DNA of 64,000 nt, taken from Paraspadella gotoi. Taxonomy: Eukaryota > Animalia > Chaetognatha. Each line of letters starts with the position of its first letter. The stretch's first letter is position 1. Where the stretch lies: positions 15,635,918-15,699,917 of the forward strand of contig CM119269.1 in NCBI GenBank assembly GCA_051294375.1, written 5' to 3'. Positions 3,244 through 43,637 of the stretch are shown here, piece by piece. Below the pieces are notes generated by a model. The model searched no databases. It saw nothing but the letters and a program-made list of their open reading frames with translations, and was not told where the DNA came from. The translations under genes and the position numbers were made by a program.

Positions 3244-4674
3244 ATCGTTGTTAAAAATTCAAAATTCTTTGCTTTCTCAGATATTTTTTATAATATTGAT
3301 TAAATAATGTTTTAAATCTTTTCTTTAGATACAGGACAGTAAGAAACTACCTCATTTTTTTAGTTCCAGAGCTTTTATAATTCAGTAATCATTATTTTTA
3401 AAATTATCTACTCACCTAATTCATATTACTTTTTTAATTGATTTAATAATAATTTATTGAATAAATAGCAACCGTTTTGTTCTGGCTTAATGATTTAATC
3501 GCTCATAACTTCAAATAATAAAATTTAAATATCAAATTAATTCGCATATTTTTATTAATTTTTATTTATTTTTTAATATTTGTCTATTTATTTAAATTAA
3601 TACCTTTATTTTATATAAATTAAAATTTAAATAATTTATATCTATTTAAAATATTTTTTACATAATTTTTTAAAAAAAAATTTATTTTAAAATAAAAAAA
3701 ATTATCTAAAAATTAAAAAAGTGAGAAATGAAGACTCATTTAAATTGAATATTCTGCCAAGAAAAATTGATAAAAATTGAAATCGAAATATAGTATCATA
3801 AATGGTAAGAACTTATCTTTGACATTGTTATCTCAGAAATAAGATTTAATAATACAGTTCCGCACAATATGTAAAAGTTAACCGACAGTACCATTGGGAC
3901 ACACTGTACACTAGCCCGGAACAGGTTGATAAACTAGAAGTTCTCTCAAATAAATATGTAACAGTGACTGTTAGAGAAATATGAAATAAAATAATTTTAA
4001 AAAAATTATTTCATTAATAAGCGCACGAAGCCTTAAAGAATTATTTTTATTACTAACATAAGCGGTTAAAATTTTTTTTTAATTTTCATTTTTGTGATAG
4101 ACTTCTGAATAGAGCTTTAAAAGTTAGATAAGGTTATTAATCAGAATTTTTAAAAATTTTTTGATTTATTGATAAAAATTTTAACAAAACCATAAAATTC
4201 AGCCAATGATGATGATGATGACTCGAATTTTAACATTTTTTGGTTTTAACAATTCTTGTTCAAATTGTGTAAAAAAATTGTAGTACTACACTTTCCATTT
4301 AACTTTTAAGCTCTATAAGAACTCCGTTGCTTAAAAAATAATTGTTTTAAAAAAAATTTTTTGTCATTGTTATATATTAATAACATATTTAAAGCTTCAG
4401 TGTAAACAACCCAATGAACTTATTCCAGAAAAGTTGTCATTGAAAATCGATTAAGTAATAGAAGAAAAAGCCAATTTTTTTTGAGAGAATTAGAAGTTAT
4501 AAAAAGTGTTCAATTTTGGCCCGCCTTAACTGTACACAGTGTACAATAGGGTGAAGTGAAAGTTTGGAATCAAAATTTAGCAGTTATATCTTGAAAACTT
4601 ACATATTAGTAAATACTAATCTGTAGTTATTTTTTTTTTACAAATATAGTAGCCCATCAGCTTAATTTTATATA

Positions 4675-5377
4675 TGTAGTCGGGCATTGCCTAGGTTCAG
4701 CCCGCCTAGAAACATGACGCCTTTCAGTTGTGACCCTGGTTGGCTCATTGAGTAAAAGCCATCAGCTCAGGACTACTAGGTACGCGGGTTAATCCCAACA
4801 CGGTACCTACTCTGCGGGAAGCGAGCGACGGCCGTAAGCCGCCTTGGGGCATGGCAAACCCTCAAGCCTGGTTCAAGCCCAGGACCGTTCCATGGCTGCT
4901 AGAGGGGTTATAGAAGTTACGGGACAGTCATCTGTCCAGCCCACGAGCGCCTTATCCACACTGGTGAGCCCATACTGTCGAGCGTATCCAACCCTCTGAT
5001 TCCAGAGGCCCTTGGTCTAGCTGAAGATTGCTCACCTTGCCCCTACACTGGAAGCAGTGCTATGGGTGGGTTACTAATCTGGGGGGCATGTAGTCGGGCG
5101 ATGATAAGGCTATCACCCCGCCTTAGAAACATGACCTTTAGTTGTGCAACCTGGTGGCTCATTGAGTAAAGCCATCAGCTCAGGACCATTAGGTACCGGG
5201 TTCAATCCCAACACGGTACCTACTCTGCGGGAAGCGTGAGGACGGCCGTAAGCCGCCTTGGGGGCATGGCAAACCCTCAAGCCTGGTTCCAAGCCCAGGG
5301 ACCCGTTCCATGGCTGCTAGAGGGGGTTATAGAAGTTACGGACAGTCATCTTCAGCCCACGTAGCGCCTTATCCACA
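4675..5377 (+). mobile_element. Complete TRIM (non-autonomous mini LTR retrotransposon) with a tRNA-like sequence in its LTRs (Helenus-like)
   Basis: Direct repeats at 4675-4960 and 5089-5377 both run TGTAGT...CCACA. The 128-bp interior starts with a PBS-like TGGTGAGCCC (4962) and ends with a G-tract (5081-5086) before LTR2. TATA target duplication at 4671-4674 and 5378-5381. Confidence 0.88.
5149..5220 (+). other. tRNA-derived Pol III promoter cassette in TRIM LTR2 (second copy at ~4733-4807); not an intact tRNA gene
   Basis: A-box-like TGGCTCATTGAG, B-box GGGTTCAATCCC at tRNA spacing, anticodon-loop-like CTCAGGA and AGGT variable loop. Stems are imperfect. Confidence 0.75.
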
Positions 5378-6462
5378 TATATAGTACTACCTTTATATAA
5401 TGTCAAAATTTTAAAATGTTTTTTTTTAATTCTGAGAAAAGATTCAGATTCCTCGTTAAAAGTTGATAAAAGAAAATATAAATCTTTTTAAAAAAAAATT
5501 ATGTCATTAAGAAGGTTAAAATTATAAAAAATTATATTTTTAAACCGGAAATTAAAAATCGGTGTCTTAAATATAGTTTTTTACATTTTTAACCAACTTA
5601 ATGAAATAATTTTTAAAAAAGAATTATACTTTCTTATGTTAACTTTTCAAGGAATCCAAATCCGATCTTAAATTTTTAATATTTGCAATTTGAAATTTTA
5701 GCCTATTATATATTTAATACTATATATAAATATAGCTCACTGGTGCCCACCAATGTATAAAATTTAAAAATAAATTTACCAAAGTATTTTTATTAGTTTT
5801 TATTTTCATGTTTTTTATGCTAAATTTTAATTTTCTAAAATTTTATCATTTTCACATCACTCTACTGTACAATATACAATCTACCTTCTACAATTCTGCA
5901 ACTGCGAGACGTCGAGTCGTCCAGAGGTCATTACCTTCGGCCACACGCTAGCAAAAAGAAGGAAAAAAAAGAAGCCTGGTAATATGCAAATGAGTTTCGG
6001 AGTGGTGGTCTATAGATCCCACGGGATTGTTGAGCGGTCGACGCTGAGGCTATCGGAAGATGGATGGAGGTGCAGGGCGAGCGGGGGGTGGTGAGTGGGG
6101 GGGGAGACAGAGAGACGAAGGTTTAGGTGCTAAAAGTATGGCCTTGGCTTGAGCGAGGAACCTCAATGAAAAAAAAAATATTAATGACATTAGGATAATG
6201 GGGGATTAAGTCTCTCGAAAATGTTTTGATTAGGTCTGTAGTTAGTATAATGTTAAAATGAAAATGAAAAACAGTTAGAGCTTAACATTCTTATTTGGTT
6301 GAGCGATTCGTTGACTTCCGATATACGCGACCGAGCCTTAAATAGGGAACGACTGAAATACCGACGTCAAGTCACCAAATCTTCGTTCGCTTGGTCTCCA
6401 TCCAGCCACGACGACACGCCCATCCTCCCACCGTGACATCCGCGTCCACAGATGATTTCTCG

Positions 6463-11577: not shown

Positions 11578-12466
11578 ATATCTGTAAAAGTTGTTAAAAG
11601 GACCAGTAGTCTGTTAAATACCTGTAGAAATATCTGTTAAAAATATCTAGTAAAAGTTTAAAAGGGATCAGTTAGTTCTTTAAATAACCTGTAAAAAGTC
11701 TGTAAAATATCTGTAAAAAGTTTTAAAAGGATCAGTAGTCTGTAAATACCCTGCTAAAATATCTGTAAAATATCTGTAAAAGTTTTAAAAGGGATCAGTA
11801 GGTCTGTAAAATACCTGTAAAATATCTGTTAAAATATCTGTAAAAGTTTTAAAAGGGATCAGTAGTCTGTAAATACCTGTAAAATAATCTGTAAAAGTTT
11901 TAAAAGGGATCAGTAGTCTGTAAATACCTGTAAAATATCTGTAAAATATCTGTAAAAGTTTTAAAAGGGATCAGTAGTCTGTAATATCTTAATCTGTAAA
12001 ATATCTGTAAAAGTTTTAAAAGGATCAGTAGTCTGTAAATACCTGTAAAATATCTGTAAAATATCTGTAAAAGTTTTAAAAGGGATCAGTAGTCTGTAAA
12101 TACCTGTAAAATATCTGTAAATATCTGTAAAATTTAAAAGGGATCAGTTGTCTGTAAATACTGTAAAAATATCTGTAAAATATCTGTAAAAGTTTTAAAA
12201 GGGATCAGTGTCTGTAAATACCTGTAAAATATCTGTAAAATATCTGTAAAAGTTTTAAAAGGGATCAGTAGTCTGTAATACCTGTAAAATATCTGTAAAA
12301 TATCTGTAAAAGTTTTAAAAGGGATCAGTGTCTGTAAATACCTGTAAAAATCTGTAAAATATCTGTAAAAGTTTTTTTAAAGGGATCAGTAGTCTGTAAA
12401 TACCTGTAAAATATCTGTTAAAATATCTGTTAAAAGTTTTAAAAGGATCAGTAGTCTGTGAATACC
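11578..12466. repeat. Tandem array, ~61-bp unit x ~14-15, built from 11-bp TATCTGTAAAA subunits
   Basis: Consensus TATCTGTAAAAGTTTTAAAAGGGATCAGTAGTCTGTAAATACCTGTAAAATATCTGTAAAA. No unique spacers. Confidence 0.95.
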
Positions 12467-12875
12467 TTGGAGTCCTTTTCTGCCTTTTAATACAGCGTTT
12501 TGTGCATTTGTGATTGTAAACTCGATAATTCCGATGGTTGTGAGAACGCTCGATAGCATTTTTGTATTTTTTTAAACTTTTTTAACTTCAGTTTTACGTA
12601 AACGTTTTTAAAATTTGAATGAGGAAAAAAAAACGACTACGACTCTGTGAAAAAATCAAAATTAGCGTTTCACTGCTGCTCTCAGTTCAGTTCACCTCAG
12701 TTCAGTTCAGTTAAATTCAGTTAAATTCAGTTCAGTTCATTCAGTTCAGTTCAGCCATCTTATGTTTTCTCAAAAATCAATTACAAAAACTTTAGACATA
12801 CTCATCTTTTAAAAAAAACAAAAACAGAAATTACCACTCGATCACTCTGAGTCAGAGAACTAATTTAGTAATGCA

Positions 12876-14937: not shown

Positions 14938-15392
14938 TCACTCAAGATCGTTGTGAGAATTTTCACGACTACCACGGCGACCCCGTTCACCACGATGGTG
15001 ACGGCGGTGGCCGTGATGACCTCCATGTCCGCCGTGATGACGACCATGTCCGCCATGATGACGACCATGTCCGCCGTGATGACGACCATGTCCGCCATGA
15101 TGCCATTTTCCAGCCTTCTCCTTTTTCATTTCCCTCCACTTCTTGATGGCCTCGGCGGAGTCTTCCATGTCGATCTCCGTCTGATGGTAGAGAGGATGCC
15201 AGGCCATTGGGTCGTTGACCTCGTTCGTTCTCAGCATCTCGCAATCGTCATCCTCGGGCGTTTGATCGAAGCGACAGACTGTGGTGCAATCGCTCTCTTT
15301 CTTCCAGAAGCAAATTCTCTTGGCGCAGTCGTCGCTGACCTCGTTGCTTTTTCCTCTTTTCTTTTTGAAGCAGACTTTTTCGCAATTGTCGC
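14938..15392 (-). CDS. Gene 1 last exon (type B repeat plus (HHGGHGR)n tail, stop TGA)
   Basis: Acceptor tttcccAG at 15393-15394. Closely similar to exon 4 (WHPLYHxTEIDMED). A 21-bp tandem repeat encodes HHGGHGR. Overlaps ORF 14938..15237. Confidence 0.9.
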
Positions 15393-18300
15393 CTGGGAAA
15401 CGAAAGTGGGGCGGAGGTGAGGTGGTGGGGGCAGAGGTGAGGTAGTGGGGCGGAGGTGAGGTGGTGGGGTAGAGGTGAGGTGATGGGGGTAGAGGTGAGA
15501 CTTCGAGGTGGTGGGGGTAGAGGTGAGACTTCGACCGAGAACTAAAATGATGGAGAAAAACAACACCGATTTCAAAAACAGTTTCCGTTGCGGATTAGGA
15601 TTTTCTCTAGAGAACGAATAAGAATTTTTTTTCATTTTCTGGTTTGCTTACGTGTACGTAATTTTTTAACAAATTTCTAATTTAAACCACATTTAAACCA
15701 CTTTACGGCTGCGCCCGAAAACGCTATCAAAAACTCTTACATTCTCTCTTACTACAGTATGATCTTTCTCGTTTGTAACATTTCTTGGGGAGATATCTCA
15801 GAATTAAATTAAATTGTGGCTCTTTTTGTAGCCCGCCGTCTAGCATTTTTGAATATTTCAATTTTTACATAATTCTAATATGTCTTGCATATTAACTTAT
15901 GACGCGATGTACAGTCTCGTAGAATAAACTATGCAGTTAAAAAAAAAATTTCATTATTGATTTTTTCATTTTTTACTGTTTCTTATCCTAGGTCATTACT
16001 CCGTGAATGTTATGTATAAAAATTAATGCAAAATCTTTTAATGCTCTCAAGGTACAGTTAAATACATAAATGCCGTCAGAATTCAAACTAAAAAGAAGAT
16101 TGGTTTATTCTATAATGTGTGAATAACATATCTCTTAAAAAAACATGCAGTCAGAATCTCCTCTGTTTAAGCTGTCATTTGATATCAAAAACTTTAAATA
16201 TTTGTCTGTCCATCTGTCTGTCTGTCCATCTTTTCTCTCGTACCTTTAAAGTCTTAATACTTATTTTTGGATAAATCAATTGAGTTGAAATTTTGTCCGT
16301 GATTAAAAAACTAGTTCATTGAGCTGGAATTCAAGTTTCAACGGAATCAGGCTAGTGGAAGTAGGTTTAATTAAAAAAAGTAAAGATCAATTTTAGTTTA
16401 TTAATTTAATTTATATTTTTATCGCTCTGCGTTTGCAATGATTTTGCTGTAGTTTCGCACATAAATGGCGTCGTATTTATACAGCTTCTCATCATCGAGG
16501 TCCTTGAAATTGGGTCAAATTAATTATTTGACTAATTAATTAAATAATTAACTTGAATAAATTAATTATTAATTAATTAAATAATTAATTAACCTGAATT
16601 AATTATTAATTAATTAATTATTAATTATTATTATTATATAATTATATTAATTATTAATTACCGAAAATGATTGTAGGCAGATCCAACTTGAAATACAAGA
16701 TGTATTAATTAATTAAATAACTAATCAGTTAATTAATCAATTAATTAATCAATAATTAATTAATCAGTCAATTATTTAATTTATTGTTCAATGAATAAAT
16801 TATTATCTATTAATTAATTATTTAATCAATCAATCAAGTCACATTCAATATCTTTCTTATCTGATGTCTCCTGGTTACAAAAAAAAATATTTGTGGAAGC
16901 CTCGAACGTGCAACCTTCGCATCTTAAACAACAATCTGAATTCTCTCTCTTACTTTTGCTTTGCCTCTTTAGCTCTCACTCTTTGCCTCACTCTCTTTCT
17001 GTTGCTTTTTCTTTGTTCTGCATCAATTTCATAACTTTTATGTCATAAACATGTCCAAATTCACCTTTCCATTTCTTTGTTAATATTGACAATAATTATC
17101 ATTTCTATAATTATAGTATTTGATACATTAAAAAATAATTCCTATCAATGTTATAAGGAGGAAGAAAACTTATTAATTTTTTTAATATAAAAACATTACA
17201 GTATTATTATTATTAAAGTAATGATTCATAAAAATTAATAGCAAATGATCACAATAACATAAAATAAAAAAAACTGTCCTCCATATCCCTCTTGAATACT
17301 TATGGAAACATAAAAGAATAAAATTAAAAATTAAAAAAAAACTTTTTCAGACCATGCTCACGAAGAATTATAATTTTGCATAAAAAATAAATAAATCAAA
17401 AAAATAAAAACATCAGATTGTGACAAAATCGATTGGGAAAAATCTGATTTTTTTAAAATGCAAAATTATTTCTCAAGTTCCTTATTTATAATTCTCTATG
17501 AGAAAAATGTTTTTTTCAAAAATTTAAATATTCAACTTTTTAATTAATTAAAATCATTTTAGTATACTAAACTTTAAAATATCTTTATAAAAATTTATAC
17601 CTAAAGTTCTAAGAAGATGCTTTTCCCAAAAATGTCTCTTAGATCTTTCTTAAAACGCCAAACAAGTCACAGCCACAAAATGAATACAAAAACTAGAAAA
17701 AAAGCAAAATTGTTTTGTCATTCTGATTTAGAGATATTTGGTTGATTGTTATGCCTTAAATTTCCTTTAAATGAAAAAATAATAGGTTTAAAAGATAGCT
17801 CTTGATCTCTAGTAGTAAATTGAGTTTGAATATAATTTTTTTTAATGAACAAGTTTAACCCAGATCAATTACAATAACGATGGTAAAAAATTTTGTCACT
17901 GTTTTAAGCTACTTTTAGCCTGATTTTTTACATATTTTGATTATTTTTGCGATCTTACTGATAAAAAACAGTCATGGTAAAAAGAGCCTATGTTCGTTCG
18001 AATATAAGGCATATGTTAGTAATCAGACAGAGTAAAAATTTTGGTCACAAGGTAAAAAATTTTGCATGAGAATAGCGTGAATAAGTTTTTCCACGAGACT
18101 GTGCACCGCGACTTATCGGCTTTAATGAAGTCTTAGAATTGGTCGATCATTACCTTTTATTGTTTGACAAAGTCACAATTAATTAAAACGTTGTTAAATT
18201 CACAAAGTATATTATGCAAAATGTAGCATTATGTCTGCTCTACAGAATTGTATAGATTTCATATTTGTTTAATGCTTAGGTGCTTGTAACTATTAGAAAT

Positions 18301-19347
18301 AATAAATAGATTTTTTTTATTTTTACTTTAAAAATTCAAAATCAATATCAAATTTAAAGAATTTTAATAAATGGGCAACACAAAATTTACTATTTTTATG
18401 CTTTAAATCTTGGTACAGGTTTTCTTTTAAGGTATTAAGACTAATGCTTAAATACTTTTTAATAATCTTGATTAATATTTTTTGGCTGTCAACGGTATTT
18501 TAAACTTTAATTAAATTGACTTTAATTTAATTTTAAAGAGGAGAAAACCTACTACATGTTCATTACCTAAAAATAATTTTTTCTCAAATTTTAAGTACTT
18601 TTTAATCATTAGAAAGAAAGTGGAAAATCAAATCGATTAATTTTGAAATGCGACCTCCTCTTAATAATCAATCACTAAATGAAGAAGACTCATTACAAAT
18701 ATTCTACATCATACATTATAGAAGACCTTCAAAACCGACTATTTAGAGTTTACGGTTTCAAAGATACGCTGTCACGAAATGTTACAAACGAAAAAAAAAA
18801 AAAAAATCATACTGTAGATCGTTAATCCCCTCCGGGCCTCCCCGCCTCCCCGCCTCCCTCATTTCCCGCTCACCTGATCCGACGCAAGCCTTGACAGCGC
18901 AACCATCTTCCTCCCAGTTCTCTCCATCCTCGCAGAACCGGATCCTGCAGGCCTCGTCCATTGGGGAGACTCCCTCCCCGCAGAGGGTGACGTTCCTCTG
19001 AAAGGCTCTCGCCTTCTCCCAATCTTTCCAATCCTTCCTCCACTTTCTCATCTTCTCCGTGACGGTGAGTTGAAACAAGGGATGCATCCTGACCCACCTG
19101 TTCTTCGGCTTGTCCTCCGATCTCAGCATCTCGCATCCGTCCTGCAACGGGTTCTGGTCGAACTTGCAGACCTTGACGCAGTTCTCGCTGTTGTGCCAGG
19201 TGCAGATCTTTTCGCAGTCCTCGCCATGGAAGCAGACGTGGCGGCAATCGCCGTCTGAAGGAAGGGGAAGGAAGATGAAAATAGGAAAAAATACAAATAC
19301 AAAATTGAAAAAGAAAATGTTTTCTTCTATCTATCTCTCTCTATCTA

Positions 19348-19381
<34 letters not shown>

Positions 19382-19561
19382 TCTCTATCTATCTATCTCT
19401 CTCTCTCTCTCTATCTATCTCTCTCTATCTATCTATCTCTATCTATCTATCTCTATCTATCTATCTCTCTCTATCTATCTATATATCTCTCTCTATCTAT
19501 CTATCTGTATATCTCTCTCTATATCTCTCTCTCTCTATCTCTCTCTCTCTCTCTCTCTCCC

Positions 19562-19604
<43 letters not shown>

Positions 19605-22573
19605 TGGTACCATTAATGTCTCATTCTACATATTACGTTGTTTTGTTTTTTTTACATTTTACGTTTACTGGCCGTCCACGTAACTTTTCGTTGTCTTTGG
19701 GGTTCGGAGTCAAAAAGTTCAAATGTTTTAAAGGAACATAACCAAATACGTACGATTTTAAATTTTGTTTTTACGTCCAACGTATGTTTTTAATGAAAAA
19801 CCCGATAAGTCGTTTAATCGCGAGCTTAGGTCCGTTGTTGTATCATTTATCATTTATCTCTGATAAAGATGTCACGCCTCGACTCTCTTTTTAAGGTCGT
19901 TTGGCCAATTCTAAGGTCTGTTTTTGGGTCCTTCATATTTTCTATAGGCCACTTAAACTTAAAACGTTGGCATAGAAAATATTAAAAGATTTTCTACAAT
20001 CTCTCACTCTATCACTTTCCTTCTTTCTCTCACTCTCTCTTATTTTCTAGTATCTTTCATAATTATTTTCTCCCAAATCTTCGCCAACAAACTGTACCGA
20101 TACAGGTGTTAAGTTATCATTAATTTTCCCTCATCTTCTGTAAAATTCCTCTCGAGATTAACGAAGAGACCCATCGACAACAAAAACCAAACCCCTTTCC
20201 TCCAAAACAAAGGATTCGATGTCAATCCACGAAGGCCCGATCGTCTTTCAACTCACCCTCTTTCATGCACGCCCTCTCCACGCATTTCTCGACCTCCCAC
20301 GTCTCTCCCTCCTCGCAAAATCGCGCCGTGCAATTTTGTTCTTCCGGCGAAACTCCTACGGGACATTCCGGCAGCCGGATCTCGGCCGTTTTGGTCCAGC
20401 CCCATTTGCCGCCTCGTCCGCCGCGCCCGCCGCTTCCGCCGCTTCCGCCGCTTCCGCCGCTTCCGCCACGGCTTTTAAGCCACTTCTTGCGCTTTCCCTC
20501 CCATTTCTCCTTCTTCGCCCGGCGATGCTCCGACCACTTCTTGGTTGCCTCGTCGGCGTCTTCCATGTCGATCTCGGTCATGTGGTACAAGGGATGCCAG
20601 GATCCCCAGTCGGGGACTTCGTCGGAGCGGAGCATCTCGCAGTCGTCGTCTTCGGGCGTCTCGTCGAAGCGGCAGACTTTGGTGCAGCCGTCGTCTTGGT
20701 CGCGTTTGTAGCAGAGCCTCTTGCAGTCCTCGCCCTTGAAGCAGACCCGTTCGCAGTTCTCGCCTTTGGATGGGATTTTTTGGTATATTTTTAAAATTAT
20801 TTTAAGTATATTTTTGGTAATAAATTATTATTTTTCTTTGTAGAAACATCAACTTTTTCACGTTAACTTTAAACACTTGTACTGGTCGTATGTTATTCTT
20901 CTATATTTAATCAAATGTGTCTTAAATTTTTTTTAAATTTAATAATTTTTTTGGTAAAAATAACAAATTTTGAAAATATAAAAAAATTAAACATTACATA
21001 AAAATATTTGAGAAGAAATCTCGAGGATATTAGGTTGATAAACAACAAAAAGAATAGTTGTAATTGAATGAATAACTCGATAACCAAACGATAAATCAGT
21101 CAGACCTCACAGCATTTTATATTTTTTTGTAGACATTGTTGTGATTCTTTCTTTTTCGCTGTGTTTGTGTTTAAGGAATAACAGATTTTTAATGTGTAAC
21201 AACGAATTTTTATTTCATAGGGACATGTTTCGACTCTGTGGTTGAGAGTCTTCATCAGCATTTGATTTTTTTGTATTAACTAACTATTTTTTTAGCTATT
21301 TTAGTTTCAGCAAAACTATTTTGATTTCAAATTTGACCTTTAAGCAACAACAAACCCTTTACCGTCTTTCATGCAAGCCTTGGTCGCACATCCGTCTTCA
21401 TCCCAGGTTTCCTCCGCCTCGCAAAACCTGACCCTGCAATGCTCCTCCATGGGCGAGACTCCCGCCTCGCAAAGGGTCATGTTGCGTTGAAAGGCCCTGG
21501 CCTTTCTCCACTTTTCCTTTATTGCTTTCCACTTCCTCATCTTCTCGGTGATGACGAGCCGATGGATGGGATGCCACGACCAGCACTTCCTTCGCGGTTC
21601 CTCCTTCGTCCTCCACATCTCGCAATCGTCATCCTCGGGGTTTTGGTCGAAGCGACAGATTTTGGTGCAGTCGTCGTCTTCTTTCCATTTGCAAATCTTG
21701 GTGCAATCTTCGTCTTCTTCTTCTTCTCCCTCGACGCAAATGCGTTCGCAATTTTCGCCTGGAAATTTAAAAAAAAAAAACGTCGATGAGGTCAGATTTT
21801 TAAATTAGAAAACATAAAAAAGGTAGGGCAGAGAGGATATTGATAGAATCAAAAAAGTGCCATCTCTGTAACCAATAAAATCTTGAAGCACACGCCTACG
21901 ACAGTTACGGTGATTGGTCAGCATAATCCGATCTAAGCAGTTTTTTTTCTAAATTCTAAATTTGATATCTTTTATAATGAGATTTTTTTAGTAGTTTTGA
22001 TATCTATTGATGTCTATTTGATGTAAATTTGTAAAAATGTCAGTCACAAATCACAAAGCAATACAATACATTTTTCATGTATAAAAATATTTAATTTTTA
22101 TTTCAATATAAGTTATATTTTAATACAATATAATGTTCTAACGGATGCCTAAATTACCTCCATCGAAGCAGGCCTCTTTGACGCATTTGTCTTCTTCCCA
22201 ATTTTCGTCCTCTTCACAAAATCTGACTTTGCAGACTTTCGCCGTCGGCGTCACGCCCTTCTCACATTCCTCCACGCCGGTGGTCGCGTTTTTCCAATGC
22301 TCCTTCCACTTGCTGTGTCTTCCGTGATGGTGGCTGGTGAAAGGTCATGGTGATAAGTAGGTTTTAAACCGAGAAGTTGTGCTTTAGATTAGGAATCGAG
22401 AAAGAAAATATAATATAAAAAATATAAAAAATGTTCTAGGATATAATAAGGATTTTGATAATTGTTTAACTTTTTAAAATTCAATTCTGAAAAAAAAAAA
22501 TATTAAAAAATAAGTGTCACCTTGCCGCCAAACAAAAGAGCGCCAGCAAAACCGTCGCTCGGTACAGCGCCAT
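14938..22573 (-). CDS. Spliced gene (6 coding exons, 1968 nt, ~655 aa) for a secreted Cys-rich tandem-module protein with a His/Gly-rich tail; family not recognised
   Basis: Exons 22573-22521, 22333-22158, 21758-21363, 20763-20257, 19254-18874 and 15392-14938 all have GT-AG borders and join in frame (phases 2,1,1,1,1) from ATG to TGA. The exons are GC-rich islands in AT-rich DNA, prefer G/C at third codon positions and are mutually homologous. Confidence 0.9.
15404..15535. repeat. G-rich minisatellite (GAGGTGAGGTGGTGGGGGTA-like) beside the last acceptor of gene 1
   Basis: About six imperfect ~20-bp units visible directly. Confidence 0.8.
15912..18101. mobile_element. Degenerate non-autonomous Tc1-like element filling most of the last intron of gene 1, with a nested HINE fragment (~16200-16380)
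   Basis: TA|CAGTCTCGTAGAATAAACT ... AAGTTTTTCCACGAGACTG|TG imperfect TIRs. No transposase ORF inside. Confidence 0.45.
18874..19254 (-). CDS. Gene 1 coding exon 5 (type A repeat, 381 nt, phase 1-1)
   Basis: Acceptor ccttccttcAG, donor CAG|GTGAGC. Closely similar to exon 3 (TEKMRKW, KARAFQRNxTLCxxGVSPM). Overlaps ORF 18782..19147. Confidence 0.9.
19328..19600. repeat. Compound (CTAT)n/(CT)n microsatellite in an intron of gene 1; (GA/CT)n tracts occur throughout, e.g. 6806-6885, 29198-29460, 33743-33840, 36935-37030
   Basis: Directly visible. Confidence 0.95.
20257..20763 (-). CDS. Gene 1 coding exon 4 (type B repeat, 507 nt, phase 1-1) with a GGS/GGR linker
   Basis: Acceptor cccatccaaAG, donor G|GTGAGT. 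GENCERVC...CRFDETPEDDDCEMLRSDEV...WHPLYHMTEIDMED...(GGS)n...ACMKE. Overlaps ORF 20222..20635. Confidence 0.9.
21219..21262 (-). ncRNA. Minimal type I hammerhead ribozyme motif (Penelope pLTR type), stem I weakened
   Basis: Minus strand reads TG-CTGATGA-A-GACTC-TCAACCACA-GAGTC-GAAAC-AT-GTC-CC, then TATGAAATAAAAATTCGTTGTTA as in the 56.6 kb copy. Confidence 0.65.
21363..21758 (-). CDS. Gene 1 coding exon 3 (type A repeat, 396 nt, phase 1-1)
   Basis: Acceptor tttccAG, donor G|GTAAAG. GENCERIC...CTKIC...CTKICRFDQNPEDDDCEM...WHPIH...ARAFQRNMTLCEAGVSP...ACMKDG. Overlaps ORF 21340..21618. Confidence 0.9.
22158..22333 (-). CDS. Gene 1 coding exon 2: SHHHGRHSKWKEHW...ECEKGVTPTAKVCKVRFCEEDENWEEDKCVKEACFDG
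   Basis: Acceptor ctttcaccAG, donor GAG|GTAATT. Encodes the 5-Cys half-module also found at the ends of exons 3-5. Confidence 0.88.
22521..22573 (-). CDS. Gene 1 coding exon 1: signal peptide MALYRATVLLALFCLAA(S)
   Basis: ATG at 22573 in gagATGg context. Basic residue then hydrophobic core and small-residue cleavage region. Donor AG|GTGACA; upstream acceptor ttctttccAG at 22607-22608. Confidence 0.85.
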
Positions 22574-39256: not shown

Positions 39257-41029
39257 TTAATTGATATAAATTAATAGAACAGGAACGATGACGAAAATTA
39301 AGCGTAGTAAAACAATGTTAGGTTCGTCATGGCCGGTGATTAGTTTTATATTTTCTCTTACTTTTTCAGTAAAATTTTCCAACCTTGCGAGGTCGTACCA
39401 ACTGAAATCCACTTCTCCGATCTGATTCCTATAACAAGAGCCCAAAACTGAACTAAAATCTTCGATGGGGTAAAATTCTGTAGAGTGAAGTTGATAACTA
39501 TACTTATACATTAATATTATAGCAGGACCCGGCAACCTGTAGGGAGAGAAAGCACCCATCGACAATTTAAACACTTTTGTTGAATAATCACTCGAAAAAA
39601 AACTTTGTAAAATATATAAAGAAAAATAGAGAAATGAAACTGAAAAAATATAAACTATTTTGATCTTTAGCCTTGATTCCTTCTTTTCTAAATGGTGCAA
39701 CAATATTGCTAAGGGAGAAAAAATCAAGATGACAGAAAAAAAAACCAAGTTGTCCGAAATCAGTTTATAGTCAAAAAGTTTGCGGTGAATCATTTTGTAA
39801 TTATTAGCACTATTATCTGTACTTAGATTTGAAAAACATAGTTCATAGGATAGGTCAAATATATATTTTTTAAAATAAAATTTTATTTTTATTATTTTTA
39901 CTAATAGGAAAGAGTACGATAATAACATTAATGTGATATAAATAAATCTGTTGATAAATTTTTTACACTTTCCACGATTGATCAAAATCAAAGAAACAAC
40001 CATGAGAAAAATATTAGTAATCAAATAACTATGTTTGAAAACCATCAATTGTATTTCACGGCATGGTTTATGTAAACTATGGGACCAAAAAAAAGAAAAT
40101 CTATTTTTTTTTGAAAAGACGATACTTCTCGAAACAGTTGAAAGTTTCAAGCATACTAAAAAAAGCAGTATTAGGCTTACTGTCGAATAAATTTCTAGAA
40201 AATAAGTCAAAAATGATTTAGTTAAAATTATGAGATAAATAATATTGATTAAACCCATTATTTGATCAAAAAAAATCAAAGCAAGTAGTGTTGAATATTC
40301 AGGTAGAAAGAGCTTGTAGTTACCAAGATTTATTATCATTGTTGGATTTCGCTTTCTTAATTTTTTATCCACAGGATTCTGACATCCAACAAAGTCAATG
40401 TTTTTATAACGTGGTAAAATAATTCGATCCCATTTTGATCCTTTAGATTTACCCTTTAATTTTACACAATCAAAATAGCTTTGATTATTCCAGCAATCGT
40501 GGTAGATCAATAGCTGTGCATGAGTAGTAGGCTTTATGTTGCTTAGACCCCAATCAGTTTTCACTCCGGCAAATATCCCAATATGTGACGTCATTGTTTC
40601 ATGCGTTTCAATAAAAAAAAACAATGACAGAAAAAAAGCCGAGATGAAGAGTGATCTTACGAGGCCCAAAATTTTAGGTTTTCGGGCACTACAAGAAAGC
40701 TTAACATCTTCAACTACGGGAGCCATGTTCAATATTTTTTGAGAATCTTTTATTAATATTTTGCAATCAGAGAAATTTAAAACTCGAAAAAAAATTATCG
40801 GTAAAAGCGCGATAAAATATTCCGAAAGTCTAACAGAGTAAACCAAAATTATAAATGTGCATACGCTTAAACCCACCATAGATTGGGCAATGTCGAAAAG
40901 TTTTGAAATGCTAGAGATGAATTTTGGACCGATGTTTAATTTTGAATACAAAGTTCTTGAACGAAAGAGAGCAGCTGTGTTTGCGATGCTCATAGTTGAC
41001 AAAAATAGGGAAACATATTGTAATGGTTC
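39257..41029 (-). CDS. XK-related gene exon 3 (long terminal exon, many TM segments)
   Basis: Acceptor ttttttcaAG at 41030-41031; 1773 nt open to TAA despite very AT-rich sequence. Confidence 0.85.
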   Translation of the reverse strand, partial: EPLQYVSLFLSTMSIANTAALFRSRTLYSKLNIGPKFISSISKLFDIAQSMVGLSVCTFIILVYSVRLSEYFIALLPIIFFRVLNFSDCKILIKDSQKILNMAPVVEDVKLSCSARKPKILGLVRSLFISAFFLSLFFFIETHETMTSHIGIFAGVKTDWGLSNIKPTTHAQLLIYHDCWNNQSYFDCVKLKGKSKGSKWDRIILPRYKNIDFVGCQNPVDKKLRKRNPTMIINLGNYKLFLPEYSTLLALIFFDQIMGLINIIYLIILTKSFLTYFLEIYSTVSLILLFLVCLKLSTVSRSIVFSKKNRFSFFWSHSLHKPCREIQLMVFKHSYLITNIFLMVVSLILINRGKCKKFINRFIYITLMLLSYSFLLVKIIKIKFYFKKYIFDLSYELCFSNLSTDNSANNYKMIHRKLFDYKLISDNLVFFSVILIFSPLAILLHHLEKKESRLKIKIVYIFSVSFLYFSLYILQSFFSSDYSTKVFKLSMGAFSPYRLPGPAIILMYKYSYQLHSTEFYPIEDFSSVLGSCYRNQIGEVDFSWYDLARLENFTEKVRENIKLITGHDEPNIVLLRLIFVIVPVLLIYIN

Positions 41030-43172
41030 CTTGAAAAAAATTGATTCAAAATAATTGCTTAAAAATGACAAGAAGCGAATAAAGTAGTTTAATAATTAAT
41101 TGATAATGTAGTCTCAAGCGTACTGTCACTATACAAGAGAAATCAAGTTCAAAGTTACCAACAGAGAAAGGAATAGTGGTTGAGGTTTCAGGAATTCTTA
41201 CAGTTTTATATGATGTCTTTATTTTAAAAATCAAACAATTATATCAAATTTTATCAGCACTGGAATCAAAAGTCAATTTTAAAATTTTTAAATCTTTCTA
41301 ACTGCCAACCGGATAGTTTTTCAGCGACTTAAAAAAACTTATTGTATACGGAAAAAACTTTTGATTTATGTTTTTAGCTGCGACTCGAGCAGTCGGTCAG
41401 TCGGTCCGTCATTATGTCTGTCCGTCGGTCTGTCCCACTTACGTTAAAAACGCTTATAACTTGCCTATAGATTGTTGCTCCTTTGTTGAAAATCAAATCT
41501 AAGCGACTACTGGCGCCGCCCTTTGTTTTTAATGATAAGTAAAAAGAAAAGTAATGCGGCGAAACACCTTGGAATAACCTTTCCTTGTTATTTAAGTTTT
41601 TATGATTAAGGTTTCGAATTTTGTGAAAGAGAAAAGAAGTTCGGTCAGATTATTGAGATACTGTGAAGTACATTTAGCAACACATAAAATTGTTGTCCAT
41701 TTATTTTCTTTCCAGAAAAAAAATTTAGCAATGTAAATAAATAAAAAACATTCAAAATGTTAAAATGTGAAAAATAAAAATTAACGTAGAGTGATTTTTT
41801 AAGTATATTAAATGAAATTGGGTAACTTCGTAAAAAATTTCATTTAATGCACTTAAAAAAAGACTCTTATTTATTTTTTTTCATAGTTTAACATTTTAAT
41901 GTTTTGTTTATTTATTTACATTGCTAAACGTACTATATTCAATAATCTGACAGAATTTTTTTCTCTATCACTCTCCCTAATTCTATTTGTTCTCAGCCTT
42001 CCACTGTCCTTTTCTCAATTCTTTGTTGGAAATCTTTATTTCTCTCTCTCTCTCTCTCTTTCTCAATTTTTAAACTGTGTGAAAATTTATTTCACTAACC
42101 AAGAAGTCTCTCATTGGAGCCGAATCAAGTTTGAGAAAACAATGCTGGATATGCTTAATAAATTAAATATTAATTAAGTAGCATAATCAAATAGTGAAAT
42201 ATATTTTTTTTATTTTTTTCCATTTTAACTCATTTCCACTTGGACGATTCCATCGAAACTTGATTTCCTGCTCAATCACGCACTTTCATACCCACATACA
42301 AAAGTTAATCGTTCCATCTAGTCATGATTAATTGGCGTTCAAAGCTAACGGGGGACGGACGGACGGACAGACGGACAGACGGACGATGTTCTTATATGAT
42401 AGAAATGACTTTGGGGTGGGACAGACGGACCTACAAAGTGGATTATAGATCCGGCTAAAAAATGAAAAAAATTACCAACCTGAATGCTCCATTTACAATA
42501 ATAAATATTTTCTCTGTTGATCCAACAATCGCAAGGAATATTTTCGTTCGGTTCAGTAGAGCCATTTTCGAAAACCCTAACTAAGTACCAATTAGGTTTT
42601 TTTTTTAAACATAAATAAGTTGTACCACTAGTCCACAGAGTCAGTAATGCGTAATACTGGATAAAAAGTTGAGGAAATGCCTCCAAAATACAATGTAGCA
42701 TAGAGTAAACCAAGATTAAATTTTCTTTTACTTCTAAATGAAGTTTTCTAAAAAGAAAAAAAAAATTTATAACGTAAATCCATTTCATCCTTCTATAATC
42801 TATATCCTCATATTATTAAACTTAATTAAATTACCTTAATTCCTTGTTGGTAAGATCGTTTAAAAAATATTCTATAGTTAATGAACACATTCCCAAACCA
42901 AAAAAATGCAGAAGTATAGTTAGCCAATATATCCATTTTTTTTGATAAACAATTGCGTATACTTGTCGATTAATCCTCAGAGCAGCCACTCCAAAAATAG
43001 TTGTTATAAAACAAATAATAAAAAGAATAGCAAGGCTAACCCATCCAATAATTTTGAGTTTAAAATAAGGATTATTTATATAATATACTGCTGTTGATAA
43101 ATCTGTTACCATATCTGTTACTTCCAATATATTTCTTCCTATCAAAAGCAAAACCTTGAGAAACGACTTCAT
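39257..43172 (-). CDS. Spliced gene (3 exons, ~792 aa): XK-related (Xkr/CED-8 family) multi-pass membrane protein
   Basis: Exons 43172-42835, 42747-42480 and 41029-39257 join in frame via GT-AG introns. TM1 carries DMVTD, exon 2 carries LEAFPQLFIQYY (XK ExxPQxxxQ signature), followed by SLFLSTMSIA. Many hydrophobic segments; the last exon lies within the 604-aa ORF. Confidence 0.8.
41371..41590 (+). mobile_element. Degenerate HINE-like family 1 copy in intron 2 of the XK-related gene
   Basis: TTTTTAGCTGCG..(GTCG/GTCC)n..AAATCTAAGCGACTACTGGCGCC..TGCGGCGAAACAC matches family 1. Confidence 0.7.
42190..42460 (-). mobile_element. HINE-like family 2 partial copy in intron 2 of the XK-related gene
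   Basis: CGATTCCATCGAAACTT..GCTCAATCAC and (GGAC)n match 34520-34860. Confidence 0.7.
42480..42747 (-). CDS. XK-related gene exon 2
   Basis: Acceptor tttttAG; contains LEAFPQLFIQYY. Donor CAG|GTTGGT (phase 0) matches the phase-0 acceptor of exon 3. Confidence 0.8.
42835..43172 (-). CDS. XK-related gene exon 1
   Basis: ATG at 43172, MKSFLKVLL...DMVTDLSTAVYY..., donor AAG|GTAATT (phase 2), 87-nt intron. An upstream exon cannot be excluded. Confidence 0.8.
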
Positions 43173-43637
43173 AATATGTAAAGAAATTAGGAAAAAAAAG
43201 ATTTAAATTTTTGGCCGGCTACTTTGCAAACCTTCCGTGGATCGTCACTAGTAACAAGTAACTAGTTGCATTCGCTCTGTTTTAATCAATTCTTTTGAAA
43301 CTGCTGTGTTCGTTTACTAATCAAAAATTTTTTTTCAAAAATTTGTTTGGAAGAGAATAAGAAACTAATTCAAAAATCAGAAATTAACAAAAACTAAAAC
43401 AAAAAACAAGAAAACAGAAAAAAAGTTTTGTATATTCAATGGAGTTTAGTTGGTTCACTATTTTTTGTTTTCTCTTCCTTTTTTCCTTTTTCTTTTTAGC
43501 CTCTTTCTCTTTAAAGCCCGAAAAATCCATCACATTTACAAGATAATAACAAAGCAAAACCTTGCAAGACTTCAATCATGACTCTGTCATTTTATTAACC
43601 CCCAGAGTACCTGGCTTCCCTATGAAGGGGTATAATA

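Follow-up and report, generated by a model that had tools for sequence, protein, structure and literature searches.

The window analysed here, a stretch of 64,000 nucleotides, contained at positions 4675-5377 an element that was, with hardly any doubt, a TRIM. Its parts were arranged as follows.

4671-4674, no strand: left target-site duplication (TSD) TATA, its 4-bp length taken from one empty-site contig
4675-4960, plus strand: LTR1, TG...CA, 286 nt
4734-4806, plus strand: tRNA-like cassette of LTR1, A-box core at 4741, B box at 4787-4796
4961-5088, plus strand: non-coding internal region, 128 nt
4962-4977, plus strand: PBS-like motif, with TGG 1 nt after LTR1
5081-5086, plus strand: polypurine tract (PPT), G6, 2 nt before LTR2
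5089-5377, plus strand: LTR2, TG...CA, 289 nt
5148-5219, plus strand: tRNA-like cassette of LTR2, A box at 5155-5166, anticodon-like loop at 5179-5185, B box at 5199-5209
5378-5381, no strand: right target-site duplication TATA

The element was 703 nt long and non-coding, and no ORF of at least 120 aa overlapped positions 4675-5377. A sequence-only reading of this DNA had described TG...CA LTRs of about 287 bp, a PBS-like TGG 1 nt behind the first of them, a G-tract before the second and a TATA duplication. All four were borne out by the measured borders, including the G6 at 5081-5086 and the PBS start at 4962. TATA flanked the element on both sides, and locally duplications of 2, 4 and 6 bp all matched; an empty-site contig that joined 4636 to 5377 without the element fitted a 4-bp TSD and not one of 2 or 6 bp, this test being one contig at a single locus in a TA run. 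The LTRs had a GC content of 55-56% versus 36% in the window, so that the element formed a GC-rich island. Its flanks (4500-4674 and 5378-5520) belonged to a high-depth AT-rich repeat enclosing it, of which contigs showed empty versions. No second copy of the element was present within the 64-kb window.

None of the 91 ORFs of the window matched a Pfam family at E<=0.001. Positions 418-882 and 1060-1522 formed a long inverted repeat of 96% identity, MITE- or foldback-like, with partial copies up to 3130. On the minus strand, four related Cys-rich ORFs were located at 14938-21804; no Pfam family was found in the three that were scanned and no homologue for the one that was searched, and these ORFs possibly represented a lineage-specific protein family. 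Positions 39257-43202 contained three further minus-strand ORFs, a hydrophobic one of 612 aa and two shorter ones, and one ORF of this group carried what we take to be a motif of XK-related membrane proteins, without Pfam support.

Copies of the element and accuracy of the assembled one

The family data were contigs of five public sequencing runs, while parts of the element were contained in ten runs from four studies. None of the runs containing it was listed as RNA, though X9 may be one, and run X12 contributed no contigs. In the deepest run, positions 5200-5320 were covered by 2,384 contigs, which indicated a multi-copy element; the summed depth on this stretch was about 2 million versus 87-317 for the listed single contigs, a sum that is not equal to a copy number. 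Past position 5377, 51 contigs of run X1 and 16 of run X9 entered unrelated flanks (agreement 0.39 and 0.46). Since the contigs diverged beyond this point, the 3' end at 5377 was fixed across copies. The multi-copy status was thus upheld by thousands of contigs on the LTR2 stretch and by the diverse flanks. The junction between the internal region and LTR2 was spanned by further contigs, and an LTR start other than TG was seen in one loose end, with two contigs. Organism B yielded one contig, of 161 nt and hardly different from the majority of the family, and was not counted as a second host.

A comparison of LTR1 with LTR2 gave 268 matches, 5 substitutions and 23 indel events. The same skew was found in the tandem array of the window (5 substitutions versus 27 indels), and it was missing from the inverted-repeat pair (13 versus 5) and from old paralogues (76 versus 19). 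The tandem array occupied 11578-12468 and consisted of units of about 60 nt; indels made up most of the differences between its copies, which again pointed to uncorrected long reads. Because the LTR differences were dominated by indels, as in the tandem array, the breaks in LTR1 were probably uncorrected long-read errors inside repeats. If so, single-letter defects of the assembled copy, above all those of LTR1, would be unreliable.

The tRNA-like segment and the twister-type motif

According to the sequence-only reading, each LTR carried an A-box/B-box cassette about 60 nt from its start. The location and the boxes held, while a strict A box did not and the B box of LTR1 was incomplete. Namely, the A-box core TRGCY was present at 4741 and 5155, and the strict A-box pattern, with one mismatch, matched neither LTR. 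The B box, of the GGTTC type, matched its pattern at 5199-5209 in LTR2, and the LTR1 copy was one letter short. The two boxes were spaced by 44 nt, as in class I tRNA. Covariance-model likeness to tRNA was not found in this copy, since Rfam gave no tRNA match in the cassette at E<=10; likewise, ARAGORN at -ps80 did not call it as a tRNA. Therefore, the tRNA likeness lay in the boxes and their spacing. The contig majorities deviated from this copy at 5152, 5183, 5189, 5213 and 5224, and by eye the family register had five of seven acceptor pairs versus three of seven in this copy. In the loose-end subfamily, the B box was altered, again by eye, at degenerate positions only. Judged by its sequence, the tRNA-like segment was likely a promoter. 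A hairpin register of 9 pairs with two palindromic hexamers surrounded the B box at 5192-5220 (and at 4780-4807), and 8 of the 9 pairs were present here.

No TTTT occurred within the element, and the first one downstream was at 5409. This had been taken as a fit to Pol III read-through; the absence itself was correct, and its significance did not hold, since TTTT was likewise absent from 747 of 2000 shuffles, which placed the absence within chance. Among the PBS sets in Fig. S2 of Kojima, the PBS-like motif was by eye closest to tRNA-Trp, agreeing at 11 of 16 positions with the bee tRNA-Trp PBS.

Behind the tRNA-like cassette, the 3' half of the LTR contained a twister motif, for which the following parts were assigned.

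5234-5299, plus strand: twister motif of LTR2 in P5-type order, from the best Rfam match, hand mapping and a descriptor
5234, 5236 and 5237, plus strand: P2'
5238-5242, plus strand: L1' (GAGGA)
5243-5248, plus strand: palindromic P1
5249 to 5250, plus strand: predicted cut between U5249 and A5250
5252-5254, plus strand: P2
5255-5256 with 5293-5294, plus strand: pseudoknot T2
5257-5264 with 5274-5281, plus strand: P3
5282-5286 with 5295-5299, plus strand: P4
5287-5294, plus strand: L4, 8 nt
5240-5242 with 5288-5290, plus strand: pseudoknot T1
4821-4883, plus strand: twister motif of LTR1, broken as assembled (3' strand of L1 disturbed, L4 of 7 nt)
4829-4834, plus strand: palindrome of LTR1, with the predicted cut between 4835 and 4836
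4836-5249, plus strand: predicted unit-length RNA between the cut sites, 414 nt

In LTR2, the core pairs outside the bulged P2 were all formed (T1 3/3 and T2 2/2, both Watson-Crick, P3 8/8 and P4 5/5), and the catalytic G, the UAA site with its cut after U and the consensus letters of L1 and L4 followed each other in twister order, an arrangement at which LTR1 as assembled failed. P2 consisted of two contiguous pairs and one across a bulge at 5235, and its pairing probability was 0 in nested folds. P1 was a six-base palindrome without a loop, which could form at most one pair within one LTR. Twister-P5 (RF02684) was the top Rfam match in the element (5235-5298, 17.3 bits, E 0.1-0.85) and missed the Rfam threshold of 37.6 bits; P3 is absent from this model, which calls for a hairpin in P1. 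A twister descriptor, composed after the element had been seen, gave one match in the window and none in 400,000 Markov null sequences. The A-U third pair of T1 was also found in three environmental loci above the Rfam Twister-P5 threshold (3 of the 6 scanned). In a screen of natural twisters, imperfections in P1, P2 and P4 were tolerated and changes in pseudoknots or catalytic residues were not (PMC11662667). These data agreed with the motif, which was weak in the tolerant helices and intact in its pseudoknots and catalytic residues. We consider it quite likely, given these sequence features, that the motif acts as a working ribozyme in intact copies.

Other ribozyme assignments were also considered. 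Rfam gave no hammerhead match in the element, and a hammerhead reading of the motif was rejected by eye for lack of a GAAA partner. A twister of the P1 or P3 type, built with the purine tract 5320-5326, was rejected as well: there was no NAA in place and the tract varied in the family. The exact family motif had 0 matches in metagenomes, while a general twister pattern was found at 80 loci in metagenomes, 28 in prokaryote genomes and none in viral contigs. As parsed, none of 109 pattern matches jointly had P2 of at least 3 pairs, P4 of at least 3 and T2; the parse took the first UAA, which in canonical P5 twisters lies inside the P1 hairpin, and thus missed these, and LTR2 itself would fail the P2 filter. 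Canonical P5 twisters were present in the metagenome contigs L015:297-350, L030:999-1054 and L049:997-1052 (52-57 bits), and the metagenome loci L051 and L059 also looked like canonical P5 twisters by their sequence.

Variation within the family was unevenly spread over the motif. Alleles of at least 3% were seen at 5 of 9 P3-loop positions versus 4 of 51 others (Fisher p=0.002), and in run X1 alone at 3/9 versus 3/51 (p=0.04); the testable span for these counts, 5231-5290, was estimated, and sites near the ends of the covered stretch were censored. The four variable positions outside the loop comprised one bulge, one CpG, one change keeping the first P2 pair and one breaking a P3 pair. At 5252, an 11% allele converted a G.U pair of P2 to A-U, a one-sided change, and no double (compensatory) change was seen among the family contigs. 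The catalytic and pseudoknot positions were without an allele of at least 3% in about 2,400 contigs. The 8-nt L4 was kept in the family: no indel of at least 3% was listed in the contigs, and the loose-end consensus agreed. A plain hairpin would likewise produce this contrast between the P3 loop and the rest.

Predicted pairing between the LTRs and competing readings

The palindrome was placed exactly between L1' and UAA. Four palindromic hexamers occurred in LTR2, so that a palindrome alone was ordinary; a Watson-Crick palindrome at the L1'/UAA position was found in 1 of 109 unrelated pattern matches. When the natural precursor was folded, the palindromes of the two LTRs paired with each other at a probability of 0.7-1.0 over six settings. 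In the precursor 4734-5412 this pairing reached at least 0.93, and P3 and P4 of LTR2 at least 0.88, while in the shortest transcript (to 5300) the values were about 0.75 for the palindromes and 0.01 for P4. Some of the length of the inter-LTR helix in the precursor fold came from possibly erroneous letters in LTR1, and in the assembled copy broken parts of LTR1 entered both swapped sites. The twister frame in one LTR cost 10-11.5 kcal/mol in nested calculations, with pseudoknots not counted. For two LTR2 segments paired via the palindrome, the cost was 2-3 kcal/mol per site in comparison with two monomers, and the best two-strand fold beat the twister frame by 8-9 kcal/mol per site. LTR folding was no better than that of shuffles (z -0.26 and +0.90). 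Since P1 has been reported as dispensable (PMC11662667), pairing between the LTRs may not be needed. Cutting by paired LTRs is what the folding models would suggest, and we place it slightly below the even mark.

The motif could also be a real twister that forms the end of a linear RNA, with the LTR2 cut replacing a Pol III terminator. The resulting RNA would span about 4734 to 5249, have a terminal redundancy of about 100 nt and go through ordinary LTR strand transfer without a circle, and the LTR1 site would usually be skipped. The element indeed had no TTTT before the one at 5409, and by eye many Helenus LTRs in the covered part of Kojima 2024 (PMC10886601) had a T-run right behind the tRNA segment. 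In Schistosoma, twisters are also described as processing linear RNAs of non-LTR retroelements at their 5' ends (PMC8501958), and the precursor fold built the site that would cut LTR2. However, the shuffles deprived the missing TTTT of significance, and the lopsided precursor fold hinged on doubtful LTR1 letters. Moreover, an intact element has the same motif in both LTRs, and the site cutting LTR1 could presumably still form in the product. We regard this explanation as unlikely.

An ordinary Helenus-type TRIM without self-cleavage would be obtained if the twister-like stretch were a decayed second tRNA/SINE module, with P4 and L4 derived from a T-arm and P3 from a long variable arm. ARAGORN called 5213-5310 as tRNA-Tyr and the corresponding stretch of LTR1 as a pseudogene; in LTR1 the loop was a 7-nt T-loop matching the B-box pattern, and the Rfam twister score stayed below its threshold. 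However, the 8-nt loop retained by the family fails the B-box pattern, no A-box core was present between 5156 and 5310, and in the ARAGORN model of LTR2 the acceptor was mismatched, the T-loop had 3 nt and position 33 was not a U. A T-arm origin would also leave unexplained the complements for T1 and T2, as well as the twister order of GAGGA and UAA. We judge this reading as distinctly improbable. It is very improbable that the twister was functional only in an ancestor and is now vestigial in a conventional TRIM, with a shrunken P1 and a bulged P2, since the short P2, the loop-less P1 and the 10 kcal/mol cost of the monomer frame, which fit such decay, stand against catalytic and pseudoknot positions that stayed free of common alleles while loop positions varied.

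Relatives of the element and a proposed life cycle

The closest frame was that of the Helenus TRIMs (TRIMp3; Kojima 2024, PMC10886601), which are likewise short and non-coding, with two LTRs, a PBS (here a PBS-like motif) and a PPT, and whose LTRs contain a tRNA-like segment bearing the A and B boxes. The animal families share the 4-bp TSD, and the element was within the Helenus size range of 311-1263 bp. Most Helenus segments are described as non-functional tRNAs conserved around the boxes, Pol III transcription of Helenus as unvalidated, and the animal families as linked to Gypsy (PMC10886601). A motif search found no LTR sequence shared with the Helenus elements in the covered part of that source and no twister L4/P4 motif in the covered part of its supplement, where line breaks every 70 letters can hide matches. 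In the covered text, no ribozyme was named in Helenus: 'ribozyme' occurred once, in a reference title, and 'twister' not at all. The sequence-only reading had proposed a Helenus-type TRIM mobilised in trans, which fitted the anatomy and Kojima 2024 and was incomplete in that it missed the twister motif.

Two Helenus elements of Synergus wasps, Helenus-2_SyJa and Helenus-2_SyUm, also had a tRNA segment near +60 followed by a ribozyme-like motif, and were comparable in their 277-nt LTR, tRNA-Trp PBS and 4-bp TSD. By eye their motif was a type III hammerhead rather than a twister, and the covered part of PMC10886601 is silent on it. In Helenus-2_SyJa-LTR and Helenus-2_SyUm-LTR (Data S1) this hammerhead was, by eye, complete: its stem I had 7 bp, and its loops I and II were complementary. 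On their sequences, both elements are candidate insect LTR retrozymes.

Plant LTR retrozymes (PMC4918200, PMC7761336) share with the present element the non-coding LTR frame, the PBS, the PPT, the 4-bp TSD and a self-cleaving motif in each LTR with cuts one unit apart; here this motif is predicted, and the LTR1 copy is broken as assembled. They differ in having type III hammerheads, a tRNA-Met PBS and units of 600-1000 nt, and a tRNA-type promoter is not described for them in the covered parts of these sources. Cleavage and circles have been demonstrated for the plant elements, whereas both are predicted here. Metazoan non-LTR retrozymes (PMC7229834) likewise have an animal host and a unit of a few hundred nt, but they differ in being tandem repeats linked to Penelope-like elements, with hammerheads of type I and with no LTR, PBS or PPT. 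Among them, axolotl HHR_Amex1 resembled the present motif: a stem of one pair carries a palindromic tetraloop, and the dimer cleaves better than the monomer. The type-P5 twisters (RF02684), including the T-variants of Perere-3 in Schistosoma (PMC8501958), have the same core letters in the same order, the pseudoknots and the cut between U and A. The T-variants are also associated with a retroelement, at the 5' end of a LINE rather than in an LTR. In contrast to a type-P5 twister, the present motif had a loop-less P1, a three-pair bulged P2, where about 4 bp are usual in twisters, and an inserted P3.

A twister-bearing LTR element was not found in the literature covered, which included 10.1101/2022.07.19.500677, part of the Kojima supplement and 6 of 13 matches of one short motif. 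In its covered part, a July 2026 preprint (10.64898/2026.07.22.740005) places LTR retrozymes mainly in plants and mentions no twister, TRIM or Helenus. A 2020 review (PMC7761336) refers to type III hammerheads in unpublished elements of insects and to truncated twisters in RTE elements. With respect to these systems, the element had the frame of a Helenus-type TRIM and likely a function like that of an LTR retrozyme, but not the hammerhead that is the criterion of that family.

Thus, we hypothesized that the element is an animal LTR retrozyme built on the Helenus plan, in which the LTR combines a tRNA-like segment with a twister-type motif. We find this reading rather probable. Pol III would start near +60 of LTR1 and read through across LTR2. 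The loop-less P1 palindromes of both LTRs would then pair, so that each active site would combine the 5' half of an LTR with the 3' half of its partner LTR, and such pairing would favour cleavage in two-LTR transcripts over solo LTRs. Cuts between 4835 and 4836 and between 5249 and 5250 would release a 414-nt RNA without terminal redundancy, which a host ligase of the RtcB type could close into a circle. With a host tRNA at the PBS as primer, a reverse transcriptase of the Gypsy type would go more than once round the circle and rebuild both LTRs, and the integrase of a Gypsy-type helper would leave the 4-bp duplication. Circularisation and rolling reverse transcription were proposed here on the basis of the retrozyme work (PMC4918200, PMC7761336, PMC7229834), and a Gypsy-type helper because Kojima links animal Helenus to Gypsy. 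By this analogy, a circle pathway, in which the excised RNA circularises and is then copied, appears marginally favoured. Only tentatively do we propose the full version: a Pol III-driven animal LTR retrozyme with the twister as an obligate swapped dimer, in which full-length elements and not solo LTRs circularise.

If this is true, LTR retrozymes are not confined to plants. In an animal, and with another class of ribozyme, the element would unite tRNA-promoter TRIMs with LTR retrozymes driven by ribozymes, two designs that have been described apart from each other. It would assign a concrete job to twister ribozymes, about whose natural roles little is known. It would also be a small system in which a naturally dimeric twister and a circular RNA made by Pol III could be tested directly. 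Moreover, together with the hammerhead-bearing Helenus-2 elements of wasps, it would mean that Helenus LTRs captured different ribozymes independently.
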